From: Bacteroidota bacterium
GTDB lineage: Bacteria > Bacteroidota > Bacteroidia > NS11-12g > UBA955
Length of the DNA: 64,000 nt
Assembly: GCA_027488835.1 (NCBI GenBank)
Contig: JAIYAW010000005.1
Coordinates: 40,307 to 104,306 of the forward strand
Reading direction: 5' to 3'
Numbering within the stretch: position 1 is the first letter of the stretch; each line of letters opens with the position of its first letter. A program made the position numbers and the translations under genes. The notes under the pieces were generated by a model. That model did not search any database. It was not told the origin of the DNA and was given only the letters and a program-made list of their open reading frames with translations. Below, one piece after another: positions 7,209 through 19,810 of the stretch.

Positions 7209-7300
7209 ATATACCTAAAATAAAGGTTTTTTCATAATTTAATGAAGTATGCATAAAATGTTTATTGTTATACATTATGAAATGGTACTTTTGCAACTTT

Positions 7301-8149
7301 ATGAGAACTGTTAACGAGTTACAAACCATCGCAACCCAAGTGCGCCGTGATATTCTAAGAATGGTATACGCTGTAAAAAGTGGACATCCAGGTGGATCTT
7401 TAGGTTGTGCAGATTTTTTAACGGCTTTGTATTTTAAGTATATGAAGCACAATCCTTCAACATTCGAGTTAACCGGAAATCAAGAAGATGTGTTCTTTTT
7501 GAGTAATGGACATATTTCACCAGTTTTTTATAGCGTTTTGGCGCGTAGCGGTTATTTTCCAGTAGAAGAAATGGCTACCTTTCGTAAATTAAATACCCGT
7601 TTACAAGGTCATCCTACCACACATGAAGGTTTGCCCGGAGTGAGAGTTGCTTCTGGTTCTTTGGGACAAGGAATTAGTGTTGCTGCTGGGTTGGCACTTG
7701 AGAAAAAGTTGAACAACGACAATAGCACAGTTTGGGTACTCACCGGCGACGGTGAACTTCAAGAAGGTCAAATTTGGGAAGCAGTTATGTTCTCCAAACA
7801 TTATAAAATTGATAATATGATTGTTACGGTTGATTTTAATCAAAAACAAATTGACGGTAGCACCGGCGATGTAATGGGAATTACTGAACTTTCGAGTAAA
7901 TTCTTGGCATTTGGCTGGGAAGTACTTGAAATGGATGGAAACGATTGGAATAGTATGGATACCGTTATTCCCCAAGCACAAGCAAAACTTGGCCAAGGAA
8001 AACCTATCGTAATTATCATGAAAACGGAAATGGGTCAAGGTGTTGACTTTATGATGGGCACCCATGCCTGGCATGGTAAAGCGCCAAGCGAAGAGCAGAT
8101 GAATAGCGCCATGGCACAATTGCCCGTAACTGAATTGGGCGATTATTAA
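7301..8149 (+). CDS. Transketolase, N-terminal (TPP-binding) subunit of a split transketolase
   Basis: GHPGGSLGCADFL and GDGELQEGQIWEA TPP-binding motifs. The track ORF starts at a TTG at 7265; the ATG at 7301 (MRTVNELQT...) fits the family N-terminus. Confidence 0.88.
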   Translation: MRTVNELQTIATQVRRDILRMVYAVKSGHPGGSLGCADFLTALYFKYMKHNPSTFELTGNQEDVFFLSNGHISPVFYSVLARSGYFPVEEMATFRKLNTRLQGHPTTHEGLPGVRVASGSLGQGISVAAGLALEKKLNNDNSTVWVLTGDGELQEGQIWEAVMFSKHYKIDNMIVTVDFNQKQIDGSTGDVMGITELSSKFLAFGWEVLEMDGNDWNSMDTVIPQAQAKLGQGKPIVIIMKTEMGQGVDFMMGTHAWHGKAPSEEQMNSAMAQLPVTELGDY

Positions 8150-8161
8150 TCCCTCAAAATA

Positions 8162-9535
8162 ATGAAAAAAGGAACCCTTCTTCTCTTTATTCTTTGCCTA
8201 TTTAATTTGGCCCAAAGCCAAATGATCAATGGTTTTAAGGGGAAAAAAACGAGGATTCTCTTTTTGTTAGATGGCAGTGGCAGTATGCTTGCCGAAATGG
8301 ACCAATCGAATCGCTGGTCAGTTGCTGTTACACTCATGTCGCAAATTGTTGATACACTGAGAACAATTCCCGATGTAGAAGTTGGATTGCGTGTTTTTGG
8401 ACACAACCAACCCAACGACAGACGAGATTGTAATGATACAAAATTAGAAGTGCCATTTTCACCCTATAACCACAAACAGTTTGTGGGTAGGTTAAGGCAA
8501 ATTAAACCTCTTGGTTTTACTTCTATTACCCAGTCATTGTTGGCTTCTGCCAAAGATTTTCCTGAAGATAAAAATGCAAGAAATGTAATTATTATCATTA
8601 CAGACGGGGTTGAAGAGTGCGGTGGAGATCCTTGTAAGGTGAGTGAGCAATTGCAGAAGAAAGGAATTATTTTACGTCCTTTTATTATTGGGTTAGGAAC
8701 CGATGCTGAAGTTTTCAGAAAAGCATACAGCTGCGCAGGTCGATATTATAATGCTGAAAACGCAGGCGAATTTCAAAAAATTATTGGGGTTATTATTAAT
8801 CAAGCATTAAACAATACCACTGTTCAAATTAATTTGTTGGACGCACAAGGAATGCCAAGAGAAACGGATGTTCCAATTACCTTGTATGATGCTGATAATG
8901 GAGCATTGTTAGAGAATTTTGTTCATACCATGAATGGCAAAGGAATCCCAGATACTTTGTATTTGGATCCAATTCGCAGATACCGCGTTGTGGCGCATAC
9001 TTTGCCACCGGTTACACTCAATAATTTTGAGGTTGTGCCGGGTAGACACAATACCATTCCATTAAATACTCCACAAGGAAATCTGTATTTTAAAATTGGA
9101 GGGACAACAGGTTATGGCAGATTATTGGCCATCGTGCGTAAGGGAGGCGAAATGGAAACCATAAATGCACAAGATTTTAATACAGTGAAGAGATATTTGA
9201 CAGGTGGATATGACATTGAAGTTTTGTCGATTCCACGCATAAAATTTTCAAATATTTCTATTAGACAAAACCAAACAACTACAATTGAAATACCTGCGCC
9301 AGGAATGGTGCAATTAAGTATAAACAGAGATGTTACTGCAGCGGTTTTTCAAAAAGTAGACAATAAAATGGTTTGGGTGATGGATTTTAATAGTTCACAA
9401 CCCAAGCAAGTTCATATTTTGCAACCTGGTGATTATGCTGTTGTATATAGGCCAAAAAGTGAAACAAGAACGCTTTACACCAAGAAAAAAGACTTTAAAG
9501 TACAATCAGGAATAAATACTCAAGTATCGTTATAA
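8162..9535 (+). CDS. Secreted von Willebrand factor type A (VWA) domain protein
   Basis: Signal peptide; ILFLLDGSGSM MIDAS-type motif followed by IIIITDGVEECGGDPC; long beta-rich C-terminal region. Confidence 0.8.
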   Translation: MKKGTLLLFILCLFNLAQSQMINGFKGKKTRILFLLDGSGSMLAEMDQSNRWSVAVTLMSQIVDTLRTIPDVEVGLRVFGHNQPNDRRDCNDTKLEVPFSPYNHKQFVGRLRQIKPLGFTSITQSLLASAKDFPEDKNARNVIIIITDGVEECGGDPCKVSEQLQKKGIILRPFIIGLGTDAEVFRKAYSCAGRYYNAENAGEFQKIIGVIINQALNNTTVQINLLDAQGMPRETDVPITLYDADNGALLENFVHTMNGKGIPDTLYLDPIRRYRVVAHTLPPVTLNNFEVVPGRHNTIPLNTPQGNLYFKIGGTTGYGRLLAIVRKGGEMETINAQDFNTVKRYLTGGYDIEVLSIPRIKFSNISIRQNQTTTIEIPAPGMVQLSINRDVTAAVFQKVDNKMVWVMDFNSSQPKQVHILQPGDYAVVYRPKSETRTLYTKKKDFKVQSGINTQVSL

Positions 9536-9536
9536 A

Positions 9537-10493
9537 ATGAGAAAATTTGAAATATTAGGTAGCAAAGACACACGAAGTGGTTTCGGTGCGGGATTATTAG
9601 AAGCTGGACAAGCCGACGAAAATGTAGTTGCACTTTGTGCCGACTTAACAGGGTCGTTAATGATGGATGCATTCAAAGATGCTTTTCCTACAAGATTTAT
9701 CCAAGCAGGTATTGCCGAAGCAAACATGATGGGTGTAGCTGCAGGATTGGCTATTGGTGGTAAGGTTCCATTTACTGGAACTTTTGCTAACTTTTCAACT
9801 GGTCGTGTGTACGATCAAATTCGTCAAAGCATTGCATATAGCCATACCAATGTGAAGATTGCTGCATCGCATGCGGGTTTAACATTGGGGGAGGATGGTG
9901 CTACACACCAAATTTTGGAAGATATTGGGTTGATGAAAATGTTGCCTGGCATGACTGTTATCAATCCATGCGATTACAATCAAACAAAAGCGGCAACAAT
10001 TGCCATTGCGAAAATGAATGGTCCCGTTTATTTGCGTTTTGGTAGACCAAAATGGCCTGTATTTATTTCAGAAGATACCCCATTTGTAATTGGAAAAGCA
10101 TTAATGCTAAATGAAGGAACTGACGTAAGTATTTTTGCTACAGGTCATTTGGTATGGAAAGCAATTGAAGCGGGTCATATTTTGGCTGAAAAGGGCATTA
10201 GTGCTGAAATTATCAATATTCATACAATAAAACCTCTTGATATTGATGCTGTAATTACATCAGCGAAGAAAACCGGTTGTGTAGTAACTGCAGAAGAGCA
10301 TCAAATGAATGGCGGATTGGGAGATAGTATTGCACAATTGTTGGCCTTGAAAATGCCTACGCCGTTAGAAATGGTGGCGGTGAATGATAGCTTCGGTGAA
10401 AGTGGAACTCCAGATGAATTGTTGGTGAAGTACCACCTCGATAGCCAAGATGTTGCCGATGCAGCCGTTCGCGCTATAGCAAGAAAAATATAA
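9537..10493 (+). CDS. Transketolase, C-terminal (pyrimidine-binding/C-terminal domain) subunit
   Basis: FIQAGIAEANMMGVAAGLAIGGKVPF and HAGLTLGEDGATHQ motifs of the transketolase Pyr and C-terminal domains; 318 aa. Confidence 0.88.
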   Translation: MRKFEILGSKDTRSGFGAGLLEAGQADENVVALCADLTGSLMMDAFKDAFPTRFIQAGIAEANMMGVAAGLAIGGKVPFTGTFANFSTGRVYDQIRQSIAYSHTNVKIAASHAGLTLGEDGATHQILEDIGLMKMLPGMTVINPCDYNQTKAATIAIAKMNGPVYLRFGRPKWPVFISEDTPFVIGKALMLNEGTDVSIFATGHLVWKAIEAGHILAEKGISAEIINIHTIKPLDIDAVITSAKKTGCVVTAEEHQMNGGLGDSIAQLLALKMPTPLEMVAVNDSFGESGTPDELLVKYHLDSQDVADAAVRAIARKI

Positions 10494-10504
10494 CCTATAA
10501 CAAA

Positions 10505-11194
10505 TTAAGCAGTTTTTTGAATGGCCTCTAAAAGGGCCATTTTTTTTGCACGCGATATTTTAATTCTAGTATCATTATTCATAATAACCTCATCAGTACT
10601 GAAAGATTTAACATGGTCAAGGTTTACCGCGTAAGATCGGTGAACCCTTACAAATGTCTCAGGGAAATTATGAATAATGGATTTGATAGTTTTAGAAATT
10701 GTATAGAATTTATTATTGGTATACAAATTTGAATAAGAACCATAGGCTTCAATAAAAACAATATTGTTATATTGTAATTTAGTAATTGACTTATGATCTT
10801 TTATAACAATGTGATTCTTTACGTTTGATTTTTCATCACTTTTTATTTGTTTTTGTATGCGCTCTGAAAAGAAATTAAAATCACATTCAAGGCTGTCTAG
10901 CAACAAGTAATCATAAAAACCTTGTCTTATAGATTCAATTGCGTAGTCGGCGTTTTCTGAAACCATAATCAGATGAATGTTTTTTCTGGTTATTTCTTTC
11001 AAGCGAATTTCAGTTTCAAGAATATTGAAATTCTCTTTATCAACAAAGAGGTATATTTTGTCTGATGACGTGAAATTCTTTTCTCCATTGACTTTATCAA
11101 GGGATTTAATTCTTGCATTTGAAAATTTAGCACAAATTAAGTCGCTAATTTTTTTAGTATTAAATTGGTTATTGAATTGAATTAAAAATATCAT
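10505..11194 (-). CDS. LytTR-family DNA-binding regulator with a degenerate N-terminal receiver-like domain
   Basis: C-terminal LytTR signature (NIVFIEAYGSYSNLYT...FVRVHRSYAVNLDHV). The N-terminal approx 120 aa resemble a REC fold (IYLFVDKE, HLIMVSENAD, GFYDYLLL) but lack the N-terminal acidic pair. Confidence 0.8.
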   Translation of the reverse strand: MIFLIQFNNQFNTKKISDLICAKFSNARIKSLDKVNGEKNFTSSDKIYLFVDKENFNILETEIRLKEITRKNIHLIMVSENADYAIESIRQGFYDYLLLDSLECDFNFFSERIQKQIKSDEKSNVKNHIVIKDHKSITKLQYNNIVFIEAYGSYSNLYTNNKFYTISKTIKSIIHNFPETFVRVHRSYAVNLDHVKSFSTDEVIMNNDTRIKISRAKKMALLEAIQKTA

Positions 11195-11644
11195 CTCCGT
11201 TTTAAATTATTATTTACGTACAATCAAAAAAGCATCGTACTTTTTTGTATGATGTAGAATATCATCTACAAAAATAACCTAATTTTGAATGTAATATTTT
11301 ATAATATTGTAAGATAATTGTTAATTAATGTATTTTTTTCAAGAAATTATATTTCAATAACTTATGCGATTTTTTTTGAGAAATATTGGATTTTGGTACA
11401 AAAAAAATTATAAAATCAAACAATATATAGAAATCGAGGTTCATTTTACATTGTATAAAATTTGTTTCTAATGACTTTCCAAGATATCAATTTAGAATCT
11501 TTTTCTGATTTATTTCGATTACCAAGTACTTTCGAATAATGTGGTACTCCAGATGAAATATTGGTGGAGTACCACTCGGATAGCCAAGAAGTTGCTGATT
11601 TCGCAATCTTTGCTTTTGTTAGAAATGTATAACCTATTACAAAA

Positions 11645-12334
11645 CTAAGCCGTTTTTTGAATGGCCTCTAAAAGAGCCGTTTTCTTTGCGCGCGATATTT
11701 TTATTTTAGTATCATTATTCATAATGACTTCATCCGTGCTGAAAGATTTAACATAGTCAAGATTTACTGCGTAAGAGCGGTGAACCCGAACAAATGTCTC
11801 TGGGAAATTATGAATAATTGATTTGATAGTTTTAGAAATTGTATAGAATTTTTGGTCGGTATATAAGTTTGAATATGAACCATAAGCCTCTATGAAAACA
11901 ATATCGTTAAATTGTAATTTGGTAATTGACTTATGATCTTTAATAATGATGTGATTTTTTACGGTTGATTTTTCATCACTTGTTATTTGTTTTTGTATGC
12001 GATCTGAAAAGAATTTAAAATCATATTCAAGACTGCCTAATAACAGGTAATCATAGAAACCATGTCTTAAGGATTCAATTGCATGATCTGCGTTTTCCGA
12101 AACCATAATTAGATAAATGTTTTTTCTGTTAATACCTTTTAAGTATGTTTCTGGTGAAAGAATATCGAAATTTTTCGTATCAACAAACAGGTAAATTCTA
12201 TCTGTTGATGAAGAATCTTTACCCGCATTGAATTTATCAATAGATTTAATTCTTGCATTTGAAAATTTCGCACAAATTAAGTCGCTAATTTTTTTAGTGT
12301 AAAATAGATTGTCGAATTGAATTAAAAATATCAT
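11645..12334 (-). CDS. LytTR-family regulator, tandem paralogue of 10505-11194
   Basis: About 80% amino-acid identity to the neighbouring LytTR gene. The identical start context gaattgaattaaaaatatcat is shared by both copies. The track ORF is extended to a TTG at 12364; the ATG at 12334 (MIFLIQFD...) corresponds to the start of copy 1. Confidence 0.8.
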   Translation of the reverse strand: MIFLIQFDNLFYTKKISDLICAKFSNARIKSIDKFNAGKDSSSTDRIYLFVDTKNFDILSPETYLKGINRKNIYLIMVSENADHAIESLRHGFYDYLLLGSLEYDFKFFSDRIQKQITSDEKSTVKNHIIIKDHKSITKLQFNDIVFIEAYGSYSNLYTDQKFYTISKTIKSIIHNFPETFVRVHRSYAVNLDYVKSFSTDEVIMNNDTKIKISRAKKTALLEAIQKTA

Positions 12335-12576
12335 TTTCCTTGGTTTTGAATTATTGTTGTTCAAGTCAGCATAGTTAAAATAATTACGGACAAGAATATT
12401 TTCTACAAAAATAATTCACAAGTACAAGTCAAATTTCTTGAAGTTGTTGCATAATTAAATTCGGTACATATTAGATAGAGGCTCGGTAATAAATAATTGA
12501 TAAGTATATTTTTAACATTTTTATTGTTCAGGTATTTCGGATTTTGGAACAAAAAAATGACTAAAACTGAACTGTA

Positions 12577-13788
12577 TTAATTCAGTTTTAAGTTCTGAAA
12601 GTATACATTCGGACTGATTCCCGTTATTTTCTTGAAACTAACGTAATATGTGGTCCGTGAATTGAATCCTGAAAAATTACCAATTGCCTCCATCGTGTAT
12701 TTTTTGTTGCTGTTATCTTTTAACAATTTTATGGAATGATCGATTCGCATTTCACAAATGATATCGGGAAAGGATTTTTTGATGTGGTTATTAAGAATAA
12801 ATGAAATATGATGACTAGGAATTGAAAAATGGTTTGCAGCCATGGCAATTGAAAATTCAGGATTTAAATACAATTGTTTTTCATTTATTTCTGAAATGAT
12901 AGTTTGTGCCAAAATAAACTCTTTGTTATCAACTTCATCGGTATCATTTTTAAATGATTTAAAATTAGGTAGTGATTTTTCATTATCAGCTATGGTTTTA
13001 TAATTGATTTTTGGTAAACCATACAGAAGTAAAGGATTCAATAATATGTATGTTGCTAGTATTATAATAGACAAACCGGTTACAAATAATGGGATTTTTA
13101 AAAATAAATTCGAATGAACAGTAATGGTAGAAATAAAAATTGAATTATAAATTGATGAATATGCAACTGAAACAACAAAAACCGAAATTACAATTAAAAA
13201 TAACTTTAACCATTTTAAAACAAATTGTGATTTAATTTCACTATTGAGTTGTATGCTTCTGATATAGTTTCGCCACGCAAACAATGTATATGATACATAT
13301 AATAGAACCCGCAAAACAAAATTGTATTTTGCTTTCATTAATGTACCTGGATAATTGGCTATTTTTGTATAATCTGTGGATATTGTACTTGCCCAATATT
13401 GCCAGTGTTGAGGTCCTCCCGAATAATAATCCAAATTATCAATAATTGCATAAACAGCCGGAATTAAATGGAGCAAATCGATTTTCGAGAAGTTATAATT
13501 TTCATCTAAATTTATGACTACATAAAAATAGATTGCAGGTTGAACGATATAATAGAAAGGGGCAAAACCCCTTAACAAAAATGGTACGTTACCAATCAAT
13601 CCACTGATTACAAAAACATGTACCAAATGATAATTGATTATGCCCCAAAACATTGCAAACATTAACCATTTGAGTTTTGGATTTCCATTTTTTTCAATTA
13701 AAATTGTTCCACACGCAATAAAGGTTATTAATACAGCAGTAATCAGCATTACTATCACTGAAGTATCCTTAGGAATAACGAAAATCAT
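12577..13788 (-). CDS. Polytopic membrane protein with C-terminal AraC-type HTH DNA-binding domain
   Basis: N-terminal approx 260 aa with about 6-7 hydrophobic helices. The C-terminal approx 100 aa carries a typical AraC/XylS HTH (EKQLYLNPEFSIAMAANHFSIPSHHISFILNNH...GFNSRTTYYVSFKKITG). Confidence 0.8.
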   Translation of the reverse strand: MIFVIPKDTSVIVMLITAVLITFIACGTILIEKNGNPKLKWLMFAMFWGIINYHLVHVFVISGLIGNVPFLLRGFAPFYYIVQPAIYFYVVINLDENYNFSKIDLLHLIPAVYAIIDNLDYYSGGPQHWQYWASTISTDYTKIANYPGTLMKAKYNFVLRVLLYVSYTLFAWRNYIRSIQLNSEIKSQFVLKWLKLFLIVISVFVVSVAYSSIYNSIFISTITVHSNLFLKIPLFVTGLSIIILATYILLNPLLLYGLPKINYKTIADNEKSLPNFKSFKNDTDEVDNKEFILAQTIISEINEKQLYLNPEFSIAMAANHFSIPSHHISFILNNHIKKSFPDIICEMRIDHSIKLLKDNSNKKYTMEAIGNFSGFNSRTTYYVSFKKITGISPNVYFQNLKLN

Positions 13789-13944
13789 CTCAAATATATA
13801 AATTTATAGGGAGTTAAAAATAAGCAAGTATTTTGGTAGTTTGATTTGGTAAATTTTTTTCGAAAATAATGCATTTGCCTTAATTTGCGATTATTCAAAG
13901 ATCACTTTTTTTCAATAAATAAGTAGATAATTTGGAATACGAAT

Positions 13945-14095
13945 TTATTTGGATTTTGTGTTTTGTAGGCATTCACTTTGTGCAATACCCGTTATTATCT
14001 TGAAGCACACATAAAAAAGTTCTTTGATGAGTATTAATTTACCTGGTTATTTGATGATAAAAGCAAATACCCAATATTCATTGTGCCAAAATTGT
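13945..14095 (-). pseudogene. Chimeric remnant of a third membrane-AraC paralogue (3' end fused to a mid-gene segment; approx 650 bp internal deletion)
   Basis: 13945-14035 aligns base-by-base with the 3' end of gene 15155-16366 (15158-15250). 14029-14095 aligns with 15908-15975 of the same gene. The intervening portion is missing and no intact reading frame remains. Confidence 0.45.
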
Positions 14096-14470
14096 AAATG
14101 ACACAGTGAATATGGGCAATGTCTGTGCTGTAATGTAACTAGGTAAAATAACGAGAATTATTTTAAAGAAACATTGATGTGAAATTAAGTCCAGGTTTTA
14201 TTATGTGGCTCCTATCTAAATAATTTCTTTTAACTGTTTAAACTTCATACTAAAGTGAAAAATTCCATATTTTTATCATAACGAAGAAATGGTTTCTGTT
14301 CTAAAAAGCAATTTAAGGAATGTACGGATTTGCAACAAAAATGTCCTAAAATCATAAAAAATAGTTTGTATCGTATTGTTTTTTAATCTTTTAAATTATT
14401 TGTTGTTGCATTTTGATAAATCACACAATTTTCAAAATATGCAGAATCGATTAGAATTTAACTTTGTGAA

Positions 14471-15115
14471 ATGAAAAATTTGGGTGAGATAATTGATGTA
14501 GATATTTTTCTATTGGATGAAGTTTCTTTGTATGAAAATAATTTATGGCAAGAAAATTATAAATTACACCTTGCATTAAACAAGTTTAAATCGTTTAAAA
14601 TTGGAATACCCTTCGATTGCAAAAATAAATTGTTAGGACCAGTGATTCAGTTTATTGATTCAATCAATTTGAATGGTAGTTATTTTGTATATTTCAATAT
14701 TAACAATGAGGAAAATTTATTAGCATTAGTAAATAATTATCACTCAGAATTGACAAATCATATTTTTTACATTTTGCCTGATAAAAAAGTGAAATACTCA
14801 AAACTATCAAAAAATTTTTGGGACATACAATTGTTGGGATTTGAAATTCATATACTAAAATGTGACAAGATAGAAGAATGCAGGTTATCGCCTTCAATTA
14901 TGAATAAATATTGGCGGAAAGGAGCGATAGTTGGTATTGTAGGATTTACAAAGAATCCTATTCGGTTATTTAGAAAAAGAAAATTACAACAGTTGATAAG
15001 ACAAAAAATATTTGATTATTGGATAACTGAAATCATAGATCAAAAAGACGTGACTTATTTAAATGAAATCAAACTAAAAGCAGAATTGCTTAATTTTCGT
15101 GTTTTAAATAAGTAA
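14471..15115 (+). CDS. Hypothetical protein (no recognisable domain)
   Basis: 214-aa ORF, the only plus-strand ORF in the island. It is Lys/Asn-rich and is preceded by approx 680 bp of noncoding AT-rich DNA. Coding status is uncertain. Confidence 0.4.
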   Translation: MKNLGEIIDVDIFLLDEVSLYENNLWQENYKLHLALNKFKSFKIGIPFDCKNKLLGPVIQFIDSINLNGSYFVYFNINNEENLLALVNNYHSELTNHIFYILPDKKVKYSKLSKNFWDIQLLGFEIHILKCDKIEECRLSPSIMNKYWRKGAIVGIVGFTKNPIRLFRKRKLQQLIRQKIFDYWITEIIDQKDVTYLNEIKLKAELLNFRVLNK

Positions 15116-15154
15116 ATTAAATATTAAAATGATCAATACGGCTGATTATTCTTT

Positions 15155-16366
15155 CTATGGATTTTTTATGTTTTGAATGTATTCACTTGGTGTAATACCC
15201 ATTATTTTCTTGAAGCTCACATAAAAAGTAGTTCGTGAATTGAATCCAGAAATATTACCAATTGCCTCCATAGTGTATTTTTTATTTCGATTGTCTTTTA
15301 ATAGTTGAATGGCATGATCAATTCGCATTTCAGAAACGATATCGGGAAATGATTTTTTAATGTGATTGTTAAGAATAAATGAAATATGATGATTTGGTAT
15401 TGAAAAATGTTTCGCAGCCGTATTCAATGAAAAATCCGGATTTAAATACAATTGTTTTTCGTTGATCTCGGAAATAATACTATTGGCCAAAATATTTTCT
15501 TTATTATCACTGTTAGTCATATCATTTTTGAATGATATAAATTTTGATAACGCATTTGAATTGTCAATTATCGTTTTGTAATTGATTCTAGGTAAACCGT
15601 AGAGTAAAATCGGATTAAATAAAATATATCCCGACAGTGCCAAAATAGATAAGCCAATTAAGCTAATTGTAATCAAAACGGAGACATTGGAATTGTCCAT
15701 TATTGTATCAAGATAGTTAAAATTACTTACAGAACTTAAACTAACCGTTACAACAAAAACCGACATGATAATCAAAAATAATCTTAACCATTTTAGAACG
15801 AATTGATCTTTAATTTCTTGATTGTTTTTGACATAATGAAAATAGTATCGCCAAGCGAATAAAGTGTATGAAATCTTTAACAAATCAAGGAAAATAAAAT
15901 GATATTTGGATAGTATTAATTTGCCTGGATATTTGGTCAAGAAAGAAAAATCATTAGATATTGTATTTGCCCAAAATTCCCAATGGTTAGGGCCTCCGCA
16001 ATAAAATCCCCAATTATCTATAACCGACAAGACGAAGGGAATTAAATGCAGTAAATCTTTTTTTGTAAAATTATAGTTTTCATTCAGGGTTACTATAACA
16101 TAAAAATAAATTGCAGGCTGAATTATATAATAATAAGGATACAATCCCCTAATGAAAAATGGGAAATCTTTAATTAACCCCAAGGATATAAAAAGAATTA
16201 CGGAAAAATGAAGACCAATCTCTGTAAATATGATAAAAAGCAGCCACTTCAGTTGTGGATTACAATTTTTTTCAATTAAAATTGCTCCACACGCCAAAAA
16301 TGTAACTAGCACTGCTAAAATAAGCAGTGACTGCACGAAATAGCTTGGTGAAATAAAGAAAATCAT
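15155..16366 (-). CDS. Polytopic membrane protein with C-terminal AraC-type HTH domain (paralogue of 12577-13788)
   Basis: Same length (403 aa) and architecture as 12577-13788. Alignable throughout, including EINEKQLYLNPDFS and FPDI..EMRIDH in the HTH region. Confidence 0.8.
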   Translation of the reverse strand: MIFFISPSYFVQSLLILAVLVTFLACGAILIEKNCNPQLKWLLFIIFTEIGLHFSVILFISLGLIKDFPFFIRGLYPYYYIIQPAIYFYVIVTLNENYNFTKKDLLHLIPFVLSVIDNWGFYCGGPNHWEFWANTISNDFSFLTKYPGKLILSKYHFIFLDLLKISYTLFAWRYYFHYVKNNQEIKDQFVLKWLRLFLIIMSVFVVTVSLSSVSNFNYLDTIMDNSNVSVLITISLIGLSILALSGYILFNPILLYGLPRINYKTIIDNSNALSKFISFKNDMTNSDNKENILANSIISEINEKQLYLNPDFSLNTAAKHFSIPNHHISFILNNHIKKSFPDIVSEMRIDHAIQLLKDNRNKKYTMEAIGNISGFNSRTTFYVSFKKIMGITPSEYIQNIKNP

Positions 16367-16465
16367 ATTTGGTGACTCCTATGCAAAGATATAGGCATAT
16401 TCTTGATTGAATTAAAGGATACGCAAAAAAATCAAATTAATTCTGTTGTACCTTTGCTTAGTTAA

Positions 16466-19400
16466 ATGAATACAAGGGAAATCTTAAGTGAGTATTTGAA
16501 AATAGAGCCGGTTAAAGAATTGGTTGAAAATTGCCAAACAGATAATAAAACTATTTTTTTACAGGGATTGAGTGGATCAGGAGGTGCAATGGTTGTGGCA
16601 TCGGTTTATGCATCACTTCAACATCCACTTTTGTTGGTAATGCCTAACAAAGAGGAGGCAACCTATTTGAAATCGGATCTTGAGAATTTATTAATTGGAG
16701 AGCCCATTTATTTTTTGCCAGAATCGTTTCTTAAGCCTTATCAACCAGCGCGCGAAAGCGCCATGTCGGTTCAAGAACGAATAGAAACATTAAGTAGTTT
16801 TCGTAAAAACAACAAACGCATTTTGGTTACTTATGGCCGTGCGTTGGCTGAGTTTGTAATAGACAAAGTTCAACTAACCCAAAATTCGTTTGAAATAGCA
16901 AAAGGCCAAATACTCGACGTTGATTTTTTAATGGAGTTTTTAGAAATCAACGAATTTGAACGTGTCGATTTTGTATTCGAACCAGGTCAGTTTAGTTTGC
17001 GTGGAGGGATATTCGATTTATTTTCATTTGCCCATGAATATCCCTTCCGAATTGAATTGGATGGCGACATCATTGAGAGTATTCGTGCTTTTGATGTAAA
17101 CAATCAATTGTCTATCAAAGAAATGGCTCAATTTTCTTTGGTGCCTAAGATTAATGCCACCCATGATATAAAGAAGTCAACTATTTTTGATTACCTCCAT
17201 GAAAATACCTTGGTGTTTTCATTGGATTCATTTTTGCAAGTTGAAGATTTGGCAAAAGGCTGGGAAACAGCGCTGCAAAATCACCAAGCTGCCATAGATT
17301 TAAAAAGTGAGAATCTTCCTATTCATCCCAAAGAAATTTGGATGAGTCCCAAACAATGGGTTCAATCTTTTTCTAAATTTAGGCAGATTTATTTGGGGGG
17401 AGAAAAACCGTTAGAGAAATTTATCACCATTGGTTTTCAGCAAGAACCTCAACCAATTTTTAAAAGGAACTTTGATATGCTAAAGACTTGGTTGGCTGAA
17501 AATCAACAAAAGCAATATCAAACATTGGTTTTCAGCGACAATAGCCGACAAATAGAACGTTTACAAACTATTTTAAAGGATACTTCCATAGAACATGAAT
17601 TCACTCCAGTTTATGTTGGGCTATCTGGTGGATTTTTGGATGCTGAAGCCAAAATAGCCTTTGTTACTGAGCATCAATTGTTTGATAAGTACTACAGGCC
17701 GAAATCACGTCAACAGTATTCCAACCAAACGTCCCTCACTCTCAGAGAGCTAAAGAATTTAAAGCCAGGTGACTTTGTAACGCATATAGATCACGGAATT
17801 GGCAGGTTTGCAGGACTTGAAAAAATGCAAATGAATGGGGTAACACAGGAAGTGGTTCGTTTGGTTTATCGCGATAACGATTTGTTGTATCTGTCGGTGA
17901 ATAGTTTGCATAAAATTAGCAAGTATTCAGGTAAAGATGGAACAGCACCTAGTATGCACAAGTTGGGAAGTGGGGCTTGGGAAAAGCAAAAACGTACCAC
18001 CAAGAAAAAAGTAAAAGACATTGCCAGAGAACTTATTGCATTGTATGCAAAAAGGAAAAAAGAGAAAGGTTTTGCATTTGCTCCGGATAATTATTTGCAA
18101 TTAGAATTAGAAGCTTCATTTTTTTATGAAGATACTCCTGACCAGGCTAAAGCTACTGATGATATCAAGCGCGATATGGAAAATGAACAACCCATGGACA
18201 GATTGATTTGTGGGGACGTAGGTTTTGGTAAAACAGAAGTAGCAATGCGCTCAGCGTTTAAAGCCGTTTGCGATAGTAAACAGGTTGCTATTTTGGTGCC
18301 TACAACCATTTTGGCACAACAGCATTATAGAACATTCAAAAAACGTTTTGCAGGTTTCCCTGTTGAAGTAGACTATTTAAACCGGTTTAAGTCAACAAAA
18401 GAACAGAAAGAGACCTTGGAGAAATTGAAATCTGGAAAGGTAGATGTAATTATTGGAACCCACCGTTTGCTTGGAAAAGACATTGAATTCAAAGACCTAG
18501 GCTTGATGGTAATTGATGAAGAGCAAAAATTCGGAGTGGGTGCAAAGGAGAAATTAAAAGCAATTAAGGTAAATATTGATACACTTACCCTAACCGCAAC
18601 TCCCATCCCAAGAACATTGCATTTTAGTTTAATGGGGGCAAGAGATTTGAGTATTATCAATACACCACCACCAAACAGACAACCTGTTCACACAGAATTA
18701 GCTACCTATAACCGAGAATTACTAGGTAAGGTAGTAACAGATGAAATGAATAGGGGTGGTCAGGTTTTTGTTGTCCATTCTAGGGTGAAAGATATTCATG
18801 AATTGGCCAATGTAATAGCGTCGGAAGTTCCAGGGGTGAGGGTTTGTGTGGCACATGGTCAAATGGAAGGACATGAGTTGGAAGATGTGATGGTGAAATT
18901 TATTGAAGGCGAATACGACGTTTTGGTTGCTACCACGATCATTGAAAGTGGGTTAGATATTCCAAATGCCAACACTATTGTAATTAACAATGCACATTTA
19001 TTTGGATTGTCTGATTTACACCAAATGAGAGGCCGTGTTGGGCGTTCAAATATCAAGGCATTCTGTTATTTATTGTCTCCTCCTGTTAATTTACTTCCTG
19101 AAGATTCAAGAAAACGATTACGAACATTAGAAGAATATAGCGAATTGGGAAGTGGATTCCAAGTGGCGATGCGTGATTTGGATATTCGTGGTGCTGGAAA
19201 TTTACTTGGTGCAGAGCAAAGTGGGTTTATTTCAGAAATGGGATTTGACATGTACCATAAAATATTGGATGAGGCTGTAAGAGAATTAAAAAATGAAGAA
19301 TTTACGGATACTTTTGATACTTCATATGATATTAAAAGTAGAGATTGCCAAATAGATACACATTATGAAATTTTAATTCCTTCGAATTATGTATCTCAAA

Positions 19401-19810
19401 CTGCTGAAAGATTGAGTCTTTATAGTGAGTTGTCGAATATTGATACTGAATTGGCACTAAGAGAATTTACCCAACATTTGGTAGATCGATTTGGTAAGAT
19501 GCCAACCGAAGTAATTTCATTGATAGATTCGGTCAGATTAAAATGGGCAGGAAAGGAACTTGGAATGGAGAAAATTGTGCTATCTGAAATGAAAATGCGT
19601 TGTTATTTTCCTGGTGATCCCAATGCTTCTGTATATCAAAGCAGTGCTTTCGCCGAAATTATGGGCTTTATAGCTCAAAATCAGAATAAGTTTGCGGTAA
19701 AACAAACAGACAAAGCTTTAATCGTGCAAGTGAATTTGGTGAATGATATTTTTGAAGCACTTCATATTTTAGGGGAGTGGAAGACTTATCTAAATCGTGA
19801 ATTAATTTAA
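16466..19810 (+). CDS. mfd: Transcription-repair coupling factor
   Basis: 1114 aa; DEAD/DEAH helicase motifs (GDVGFGKTEVAMRSAF, VIDEEQKFGV, TLTATPIPRTL) and a C-terminal TRCF domain. Confidence 0.95.
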   Translation: MNTREILSEYLKIEPVKELVENCQTDNKTIFLQGLSGSGGAMVVASVYASLQHPLLLVMPNKEEATYLKSDLENLLIGEPIYFLPESFLKPYQPARESAMSVQERIETLSSFRKNNKRILVTYGRALAEFVIDKVQLTQNSFEIAKGQILDVDFLMEFLEINEFERVDFVFEPGQFSLRGGIFDLFSFAHEYPFRIELDGDIIESIRAFDVNNQLSIKEMAQFSLVPKINATHDIKKSTIFDYLHENTLVFSLDSFLQVEDLAKGWETALQNHQAAIDLKSENLPIHPKEIWMSPKQWVQSFSKFRQIYLGGEKPLEKFITIGFQQEPQPIFKRNFDMLKTWLAENQQKQYQTLVFSDNSRQIERLQTILKDTSIEHEFTPVYVGLSGGFLDAEAKIAFVTEHQLFDKYYRPKSRQQYSNQTSLTLRELKNLKPGDFVTHIDHGIGRFAGLEKMQMNGVTQEVVRLVYRDNDLLYLSVNSLHKISKYSGKDGTAPSMHKLGSGAWEKQKRTTKKKVKDIARELIALYAKRKKEKGFAFAPDNYLQLELEASFFYEDTPDQAKATDDIKRDMENEQPMDRLICGDVGFGKTEVAMRSAFKAVCDSKQVAILVPTTILAQQHYRTFKKRFAGFPVEVDYLNRFKSTKEQKETLEKLKSGKVDVIIGTHRLLGKDIEFKDLGLMVIDEEQKFGVGAKEKLKAIKVNIDTLTLTATPIPRTLHFSLMGARDLSIINTPPPNRQPVHTELATYNRELLGKVVTDEMNRGGQVFVVHSRVKDIHELANVIASEVPGVRVCVAHGQMEGHELEDVMVKFIEGEYDVLVATTIIESGLDIPNANTIVINNAHLFGLSDLHQMRGRVGRSNIKAFCYLLSPPVNLLPEDSRKRLRTLEEYSELGSGFQVAMRDLDIRGAGNLLGAEQSGFISEMGFDMYHKILDEAVRELKNEEFTDTFDTSYDIKSRDCQIDTHYEILIPSNYVSQTAERLSLYSELSNIDTELALREFTQHLVDRFGKMPTEVISLIDSVRLKWAGKELGMEKIVLSEMKMRCYFPGDPNASVYQSSAFAEIMGFIAQNQNKFAVKQTDKALIVQVNLVNDIFEALHILGEWKTYLNRELI

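Follow-up and report, generated by a model that had tools for sequence, protein, structure and literature searches.

A tandem duplication of a LytTR regulator gene and the 3' end of a transketolase gene in a Bacteroidota bacterium

The repeated block and its genes

The stretch analysed here, referred to as the window, comprises 64,000 nucleotides of a Bacteroidota bacterium (GenBank assembly GCA_027488835.1, contig JAIYAW010000005.1, positions 40,307 to 104,306 of the forward strand). It contains two neighbouring LytTR regulator genes in an interval that is set between the genes of a two-subunit transketolase and mfd (16466-19810). Both regulator genes lie within a direct repeat that also carries the 3' end of tktC, the gene for the C-terminal transketolase subunit. 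The copy next to tktC is called proximal and the other distal. The relevant features are the following.

9537-10493, plus strand: tktC, transketolase C-terminal subunit, 318 amino acids, source of the duplicated 3' end (Pfam Transket_pyr, E = 1e-41; Transketolase_C, E = 2e-28)
10392-11426, strand not applicable: repeat copy 1 (tkt-proximal), consisting of the last 102 nucleotides of tktC, an 11-nucleotide spacer, the LytTR gene and 232 nucleotides upstream of it (self-BLAST, repeat search, local alignment)
10505-11194, minus strand: proximal LytTR regulator gene, 229 amino acids, with a divergent receiver-like N-terminal domain and a LytTR domain (Pfam, AlphaFold, fold match)
11427-11530, strand not applicable: 104-nucleotide stretch from the end of detectable repeat homology to the junction (comparisons with AraC 3' ends and with the related locus L003 negative)
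11530/11531, strand not applicable: duplication junction, where upstream DNA of the proximal copy meets tktC at about codon 286 (ungapped homology from 10392 and 11531)
11531-11632, plus strand: relic of the tktC 3' end, last 31 codons and stop, TAA at the junction, non-coding (repeat search, BLAST, codon-position counts)
11531-12577, strand not applicable: repeat copy 2 (distal), consisting of the tkt relic, a 12-nucleotide spacer, the LytTR gene and 242 nucleotides upstream, ending at the stop of an AraC-type gene (self-BLAST, repeat search, local alignment)
11645-12334, minus strand: distal LytTR regulator gene, 229 amino acids from the homologous ATG (open reading frame, Pfam, 83% amino acid identity to the proximal protein)

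A sensitive self-BLAST of positions 9000-17000 aligned 10392-11319 with 11531-12456 at 79.7% identity over 929 columns (E = 0), and a weaker colinear block followed further on (11379-11426 against 12530-12577, 48 nucleotides, 71%). An ungapped repeat search returned two families, one covering the 3' 300 nucleotides of the LytTR genes (10502-10801 against 11642-11941, 89%, spacing 1140) and one covering the tktC tail and spacer (10392-10504 against 11531-11643, 113 nucleotides, 74%, spacing 1139). The copies are adjacent, head-to-tail and in the same orientation, with a start-to-start period of 1139-1140 nucleotides, as expected from the proposal in the initial annotation that the tkt 3' end and the LytTR gene had been duplicated in tandem as one block. 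The pairwise alignment suggested there as a check shows that similarity is not confined to the coding regions: it spans coding and non-coding sequence on both flanks of the LytTR genes and reaches 232 nucleotides (proximal) and 242 nucleotides (distal) upstream of them. The upstream regions of the two copies are only about 66-70% identical. Immediately to the left of the junction the homology stops, with 2 matches in 10 nucleotides. No further LytTR or tkt copies were found elsewhere in the 64-kb window.

The tktC relic is 74% identical to the tktC 3' end over its 102 nucleotides, ungapped and in frame, with the stop codon in the identical position; the initial annotation had placed this degenerate copy at 11540-11640. 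Its reading frame gives CGTPDEILVEYHSDSQEVADFAIFAFVRNV before the stop codon, compared with SGTPDELLVKYHLDSQDVADAAVRAIARKI in tktC, and the match reaches E = 6e-20 by blastn in a small local set and E = 2e-7 by tblastn against the whole window. Because the relic lacks the 5' part of the gene and has a TAA at the junction, it is non-coding. Compared with the consensus-like tktC 3' ends of two related loci, L003 and L006, it differs at 7, 4 and 6 sites in codon positions 1, 2 and 3, whereas live tktC genes compared with each other differ at 3, 0 and 10. The L003 relic carries a frameshift. Since the differences are spread over the codon positions, unlike in live tktC, and since L003 has this frameshift, the relic reads as a neutrally decaying pseudogene fragment, in agreement with the earlier description of a non-functional tkt fragment. 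The window relic carries about 18% private changes. It matches the window's own tktC at 70 of 96 positions and the tktC of L003 and L006 at 78 of 96, which is likely explained by changes, mostly synonymous, that the window's tktC acquired itself after the duplication.

The 3' end of the window's tktC was also compared with relatives in its own right. Lineage-specific changes cluster in its last 96 nucleotides (10398-10493). The last 93 differ from L003 at 13 sites, mostly third positions, with the replacements I>V and V>I, and identity over the last 170 or so nucleotides is 88-89%, compared with about 93% for the whole tkt block.

The two LytTR genes are convergent with tktC. They are 85% identical in DNA and 83% in protein, ungapped, and share the start context ATGATATTTTTAATTCAATTC; their coordinates and common start context had been given correctly in the initial annotation, with protein identity estimated at about 80%. 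An in-frame TTG upstream of the distal gene, at 12364, would yield a protein of 239 amino acids. Pfam LytTR (PF04397) is found at residues 136-225 of both proteins, with E = 2e-17 and 4e-19 and scores of 63.6 and 69.1 bits (cut-off 22.6). No other Pfam domain was detected in either, and a search of the N-terminal 128 residues at E <= 10 did not retrieve PF00072. Profile searching of the PDB gave only a weak receiver match (6ont, E = 0.034). An AlphaFold model built with 25 homologues (mean predicted local distance difference test score 81) has five strands in its alpha/beta N-terminal domain, followed by a long helix and a LytTR domain rich in beta structure. Over its full length the model is matched best by the fold of ComE (4cbv, receiver and LytTR domains, E = 4e-12). 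Matches to LytTR domains alone (AgrA, 3d6w) have template modelling (TM) scores of about 0.8 on the target, and those to receivers alone are weak (E = 2e-3 to 2e-2, TM about 0.6). An aspartate at the end of strand 3, Asp-52, is invariant in the 25 homologues and is a candidate for the phospho-acceptor.

Both proteins belong to the LytR/AgrA type of regulator, their receiver-like domain being strongly divergent. They share the two-domain architecture of LytR/AgrA/AlgR-family regulators such as ComE of Streptococcus pneumoniae (4cbv) and AgrA (3bs1, 4g4k), with the LytTR domain recognized by both sequence and fold, a predicted receiver-like alpha/beta fold at the N terminus and, at the end of strand 3, the invariant Asp-52 that may correspond to the acceptor. 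They differ from that family in that the receiver domain has no PF00072 match at E = 10, N/D-N takes the place of the acidic pair after strand 1, and a conserved lysine following strand 5 is not evident. No histidine kinase domain was found in the eight neighbouring open reading frames of 7265-16366 that were scanned against Pfam, the rest of the window not having been scanned. These neighbours encode the transketolase subunits, a VWA-domain protein, AraC-type membrane proteins and one product without a Pfam match, with mfd lying beyond.

Upstream of both genes, two blocks are conserved. The nearer one, TTATTTTTGTAGA, lies about 75 nucleotides upstream in both window copies and has the form TAAATTTGTAGA in L003. 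It contains a motif that we take to be the Bacteroidota -7 motif TAnnTTTG.

11269-11276, minus strand: putative Bacteroidota -7 promoter box TATTTTTG, matching TAnnTTTG, 75 nucleotides upstream of the proximal ATG
12406-12413, minus strand: the same putative -7 box, 72 nucleotides upstream of the distal ATG, from the alignment of the copies

The second block, GGATTTTGG[TA]ACAAAAAAA, is conserved about 200 nucleotides upstream of both LytTR starts (11379-11426 and 12530-12577). The two blocks are possible promoter or operator elements that were duplicated with the gene. A scan for sigma-70 promoters returned 13 sites compared with 15 in shuffled sequence, the sigma-70 model being unsuitable for Bacteroidota. 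Rfam and tRNA scans of the region gave nothing above threshold, and two sub-threshold matches correspond to a terminator-like hairpin that is described below.

Selection, age and copy number in relatives

Substitutions per synonymous site (dS) and per nonsynonymous site (dN) were estimated by the Nei-Gojobori method. The proximal and distal window genes differ by dS 0.632 and dN 0.082, a dN/dS ratio (omega) of 0.13, and by 23, 18 and 61 differences at codon positions 1, 2 and 3. The N-terminal domain has omega 0.19 and dN 0.12, and the LytTR domain omega 0.06 and dN 0.038. The dN/dS comparison, which had been recommended in the initial annotation, thus returns purifying selection on both copies, and the input domain has about three times the dN of the DNA-binding domain.

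Homologues of the locus are restricted to a narrow set of metagenomic sequences and metagenome-assembled genomes (MAGs). All recovered loci retain the backbone mfd ... tktC-VWA-tktN, and their tkt blocks are 90-93% identical in nucleotide sequence. Their layouts are as follows.

L003 (= L007), GCA_947450405.1, Flavobacteriales MAG Jr-16oct17-283: two LytTR genes with a spacing of 1131 nucleotides; relic at 8698-8813, 84% identical to its own tktC
L008, Flavobacteriales MAG Jr-11may16-137: two LytTR genes; relic at 8691-8813, 73% identical to its own tktC; an AraC fragment between the copies
L001, JGI: two LytTR genes, no relic
L002, Logan: one intact LytTR gene, the distal copy cut to its last 39 codons
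L004/L005, ENA and Logan: one LytTR gene, no relic
L006, JGI: one LytTR gene, no relic
L009-L011, more distant (Mfd 84% identical in amino acids): one LytTR gene, in the order mfd-AraC-LytTR-tktC with one copy of each

This is the copy-number comparison that the initial annotation called for: two copies in L001, L003 and L008, and one in L004, L006 and L009-L011. The single-copy order in L009-L011 indicates that the duplication is the derived state.

For the tktC and VWA genes, dS between the window genome and L001, L003 and L006 is 0.36-0.46, rising to 0.60-0.61 for L004 and 0.71 for L008 (tktC only). Set against these values, the paralogue dS of 0.63, which is similar to those for L004 and L008, indicates that the copies are at least as old as these species splits. 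Two further species-level MAGs have a relic that begins at the same boundary, which likewise places the duplication before their split. The duplication is therefore old rather than a young event caught in the act. The description of the array in the initial annotation as a recent snapshot of expansion, with copies that are now diverging, does not hold, as the paralogue dS exceeds that of the closest relatives and the relic is also found in L003 and L008.

In both of these loci the relic follows the distal LytTR copy, as in the window. Expressed as equivalent positions of the window's tktC, the relics start at 10383 (L008), 10386 (L003) and 10392 (window), i.e. within about 10 nucleotides of each other, and the motif (GA)TT[GA]C[CT]AA[AG] is present just past the junction in all three. 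Upstream regions also sort across genomes into a proximal type (the proximal copies of the window, L001 and L003, together with L002) and a distal, AraC-adjacent type. Near the stop codon, AGCCG replaces GGCCA in the distal copies of the window, L001 and L003.

Several individual loci show further changes. In L002, the distal LytTR remnant NLDHVKTFSNDEVIMNNDIRIKISWAKKMGIMDVLFQTA (7640-7758, 39 codons) is fused two codons past the AraC stop; it is a deletion scar that records the loss of one copy in that lineage. The L003 paralogues (8001-8693 and 9132-9824) are 99% identical in a 90-nucleotide window (columns 451-540) and 79-90% identical in the adjoining windows, and the 99% tract is likely a recent gene-conversion tract. 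In L008, an AraC fragment (amino acids 95-166) lies at 8905-9120 between the LytTR copies, and the alignment of the tkt-adjacent LytTR gene (10183-10725) starts no earlier than residue 49, which may mean a truncation or a replaced 5' end.

Origin and history of the array

The shared relic boundary, the junction motif, the sorting of upstream regions and the AGCCG of the distal copies together favour one ancestral event. The reading that we consider most probable, at about 0.75, is a single ancestral tandem duplication of which both copies were kept, and which was later remodelled by gene conversion or allele exchange and by deletion. The event would have been one head-to-tail duplication of about 1.14 kb in a clade, of genus rank, of uncultured freshwater Flavobacteriales. 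The unit copied would have run from about codon 286 of tktC through the convergent LytTR gene to several hundred bases upstream of it, and the new unit would have been inserted with the original LytTR gene on one side and the AraC-type gene on the other. The outcome would be two complete regulators, each with its own upstream or promoter region, and a startless 102-nucleotide tktC tail left to decay neutrally. Both regulators have been retained under selection, with a nearly frozen LytTR domain and a receiver-like half that changes about three times faster in dN. Such a pattern fits a probable functional divergence of inputs, with both regulators still reading similar DNA sites. Later, and separately in each lineage, there would have been conversion or allele exchange, deletion of the relic, loss of one copy, and a parallel gain and loss of AraC-type genes.

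Several observations weigh against a single origin. In the LytTR tree the genes do not fall into proximal and distal orthologues: the window copies both join the proximal copy of L001 and the L002 gene, and the L003 copies both join the distal copy of L001 and the L006 gene. Copies at the same position in different genomes differ by dS 1.2-1.3, about three times the 0.4 of the flanking genes. The relics of the window and L003 share only 1-2 derived changes, compared with 15 and 11 private ones, and the similarity between these two loci across the junction is not significant (shuffle test, 367/1000), leaving the short motif only. Finally, a simple tandem duplication predicts a relic of an AraC 3' end at 11427-11530, and none is detectable; this stretch matches neither an AraC 3' end nor its L003 counterpart significantly. 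Neither a flanking repeat nor microhomology at the ends of the duplication is recoverable at the present divergence; unequal crossing-over, named in the initial annotation, and illegitimate recombination are both possible mechanisms. The five nucleotides TTCGG, common to the tktC boundary and the AraC 3' end, were considered as a recombination site and rejected because such a match is indistinguishable from chance.

The dS between genomes and the conflict with the tree mean that a single origin requires extra events, either conversion or allele replacement. That gene conversion between the paralogues occurs follows from the proximal copy of L003, which in sliding windows is a mosaic with a 3' end 95-96% identical to the proximal copy of L001 and a middle 90-99% identical to its own distal copy. 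Conversion or allele exchange between lineages would be the most economical way to reconcile the shared junction with the tree, and on this basis a single origin is probable.

The tree could instead reflect recurrent, independent duplications of each lineage's own LytTR allele, with a recombination-prone site in the tktC 3' end fixing the left boundary. Paralogues within a genome are indeed closer (dS 0.58-0.66) than same-position copies across genomes (1.2-1.3), and relic substitutions are almost all private. Against this, the boundaries agree within about 10 nucleotides in three genomes and a short motif is shared past the junction, AGCCG near the stop is common to the distal copies of the window, L001 and L003, the upstream regions group by position across genomes, and the L003 mosaic directly demonstrates conversion; we regard recurrence as unlikely. 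A little less likely still is the import of the distal block from a related species by homologous recombination, i.e. lateral allele capture. It would account for a window relic that is nearer to the tktC 3' ends of other species than to its own, for a divergence of the LytTR region between genomes far above that of its flanks, and for the 88% identity between the distal copies of L001 and L003 despite the placement of the proximal L001 copy in the other clade. However, the excess distance of the relic to its own tktC is explained by the window-specific tktC changes with their 3/0/10 pattern, both window copies are of one allele type, and an earlier tandem array would still be needed as donor or target, so that import concerns the later history of the locus and not its origin.

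A recent, lineage-specific duplication that is only starting to diverge is very improbable. The window copies do cluster together in the tree and are mutually closest along the greater part of the gene (92% across its first 90 nucleotides, 87-89% in columns 271-720), but their dS is above the species-level dS of the flanking genes, the private changes in the relic and the low identity of the upstream regions are out of keeping with recency, and the relic and junction recur in L003 and L008. The chance that the arrangement is an assembly artefact or a chance similarity is negligible: the matches reach E = 0 and E = 6e-20, a mis-assembled repeat would not show the 15-20% of differing sites between the copies, and independent NCBI, JGI and Logan assemblies have this layout too.

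The locus that emerges from the preferred reading, one old duplication remodelled later, is an ordinary tandem paralogue array. It is an instance of a well-known event, with no new kind of element or mechanism. The tufA and tufB genes of Salmonella are the textbook paralogue pair with concerted evolution by gene conversion. Features common to this locus and such cases of tandem duplication with concerted evolution are copies in head-to-tail order, homology that continues beyond the coding region, a dead, incomplete neighbour gene at the junction, paralogues of mosaic identity and the loss of copies by deletion. The present case differs in that its copies lie side by side with a period of 1.14 kb, they are old (dS 0.63), sister species vary in their numbers of LytTR and AraC-type genes, and the mediating flanking repeat is not recoverable. 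A literature search returned nothing about this locus, nor about tandem duplications of LytTR genes in Bacteroidota. At small scale and in good resolution, the locus illustrates the growth and shrinkage of bacterial regulator families: both copies were kept after duplication, and the sensory, receiver-like half diverges faster than the half that binds DNA. The mfd-tkt interval in this Flavobacteriales clade can be described as a copy-number-variable island of LytTR and AraC-type regulators in a highly conserved backbone.

A predicted terminator and the neighbouring genes

The end of the proximal LytTR gene overlaps a predicted transcription terminator for tktC, which has a degraded duplicate in the distal copy.

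10519-10550, plus strand: intrinsic-terminator-like hairpin and T8 for tktC, within the last codons (KKMALLEAIQ) of the proximal LytTR gene (terminator scan)
11659-11690, plus strand: degraded duplicate hairpin in the distal copy, GTTTTCTTTG, with a G>A change in the stem, CCAT>CCGT and a broken T-run (-8.6 kcal/mol; not called by the terminator scan)

The hairpin (10519-10542, followed by T8; sequence GAATGGCCTCTAAAAGGGCCATTT TTTTT) has nine pairs and a 6-nucleotide loop and begins 26 nucleotides past the tktC stop. It is the sole terminator call in 10300-12700, a 2.4-kb region in which 0.9 calls are expected by chance. Stem and T-run are identical, at -12.3 kcal/mol, in eight of nine tkt-adjacent copies (window, L001, L002, L003, L004, L008, L009 and L010), the exception being L006 with a weaker hairpin of -7.0. 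The stem and T-run persist even at genus-level divergence, in the distant L009 and L010, although the loop and the C-terminal residues vary. In distal copies the hairpin is degraded in four of four cases (window -8.6, L001 -2.9, L003 -5.8, L008 -6.5). The distal copy, which faces a dead relic, would serve as a natural control, and in each genome its stem or its T-run has broken down.

The stem ATGGCC/GGCCAT uses the GC-rich alanine codon GCC twice in an AT-rich genome, and three of the four distal copies have a Met>Thr change. The repeated GCC in both halves of the stem, lost together with the Met>Thr change in distal copies, suggests selection on RNA structure. A confounder for such selection is that the peptide KKMAL.EAI is conserved family-wide. 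At roughly even odds, the convergent tktC gene would have its intrinsic terminator within the coding sequence of the tkt-adjacent LytTR gene, whose last ten codons would then have a second function. Like known intrinsic terminators that are shared by or embedded in convergent genes, the element is a GC-rich hairpin followed by T8 a short distance past a stop codon. It differs from these in that it lies wholly inside the LytTR coding sequence and in that the duplication supplies an internal control. The embedded predicted terminator is a modest curiosity; if real, it would be a clean comparative demonstration of a dual constraint from coding and termination.

On the tkt side of the interval lie two further genes.

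7265-8149: transketolase N-terminal subunit gene (tktN)
8162-9535: VWA-domain gene, 457 amino acids, between the transketolase subunit genes

The spacing of tktN, the VWA gene and tktC is tight (12 nucleotides and 1 nucleotide), and the three-gene order is conserved in all close relatives.

On the mfd side, the window carries two AraC-type paralogues of 403 amino acids each, at 12577-13788 and 15155-16366, both on the minus strand. Each has an N-terminal multi-pass membrane region and a C-terminal AraC-type helix-turn-helix domain (Pfam HTH_18/HTH_AraC), and the pair shares 63% identity at the protein level and 70% at the DNA level (1204 nucleotides). Relatives have one to three AraC-type copies between mfd and the LytTR genes, so that copy number varies here too. 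Between the two window copies, 13945-14164 is a shredded third AraC-type gene with large internal deletions. Its three pieces are colinear with 15164-15227 (86%, 3' end), 15896-15949 (76%, middle) and 16293-16369 (69%, 5' end), and L001 and L003 have a C-terminal AraC fragment of 69-70 codons at the equivalent place. Also between the AraC-type copies, on the plus strand at 14471-15115, is an open reading frame of 214 amino acids without a Pfam match, which is present at the same place in L001, L003 and L006 with 64-67% amino acid identity.

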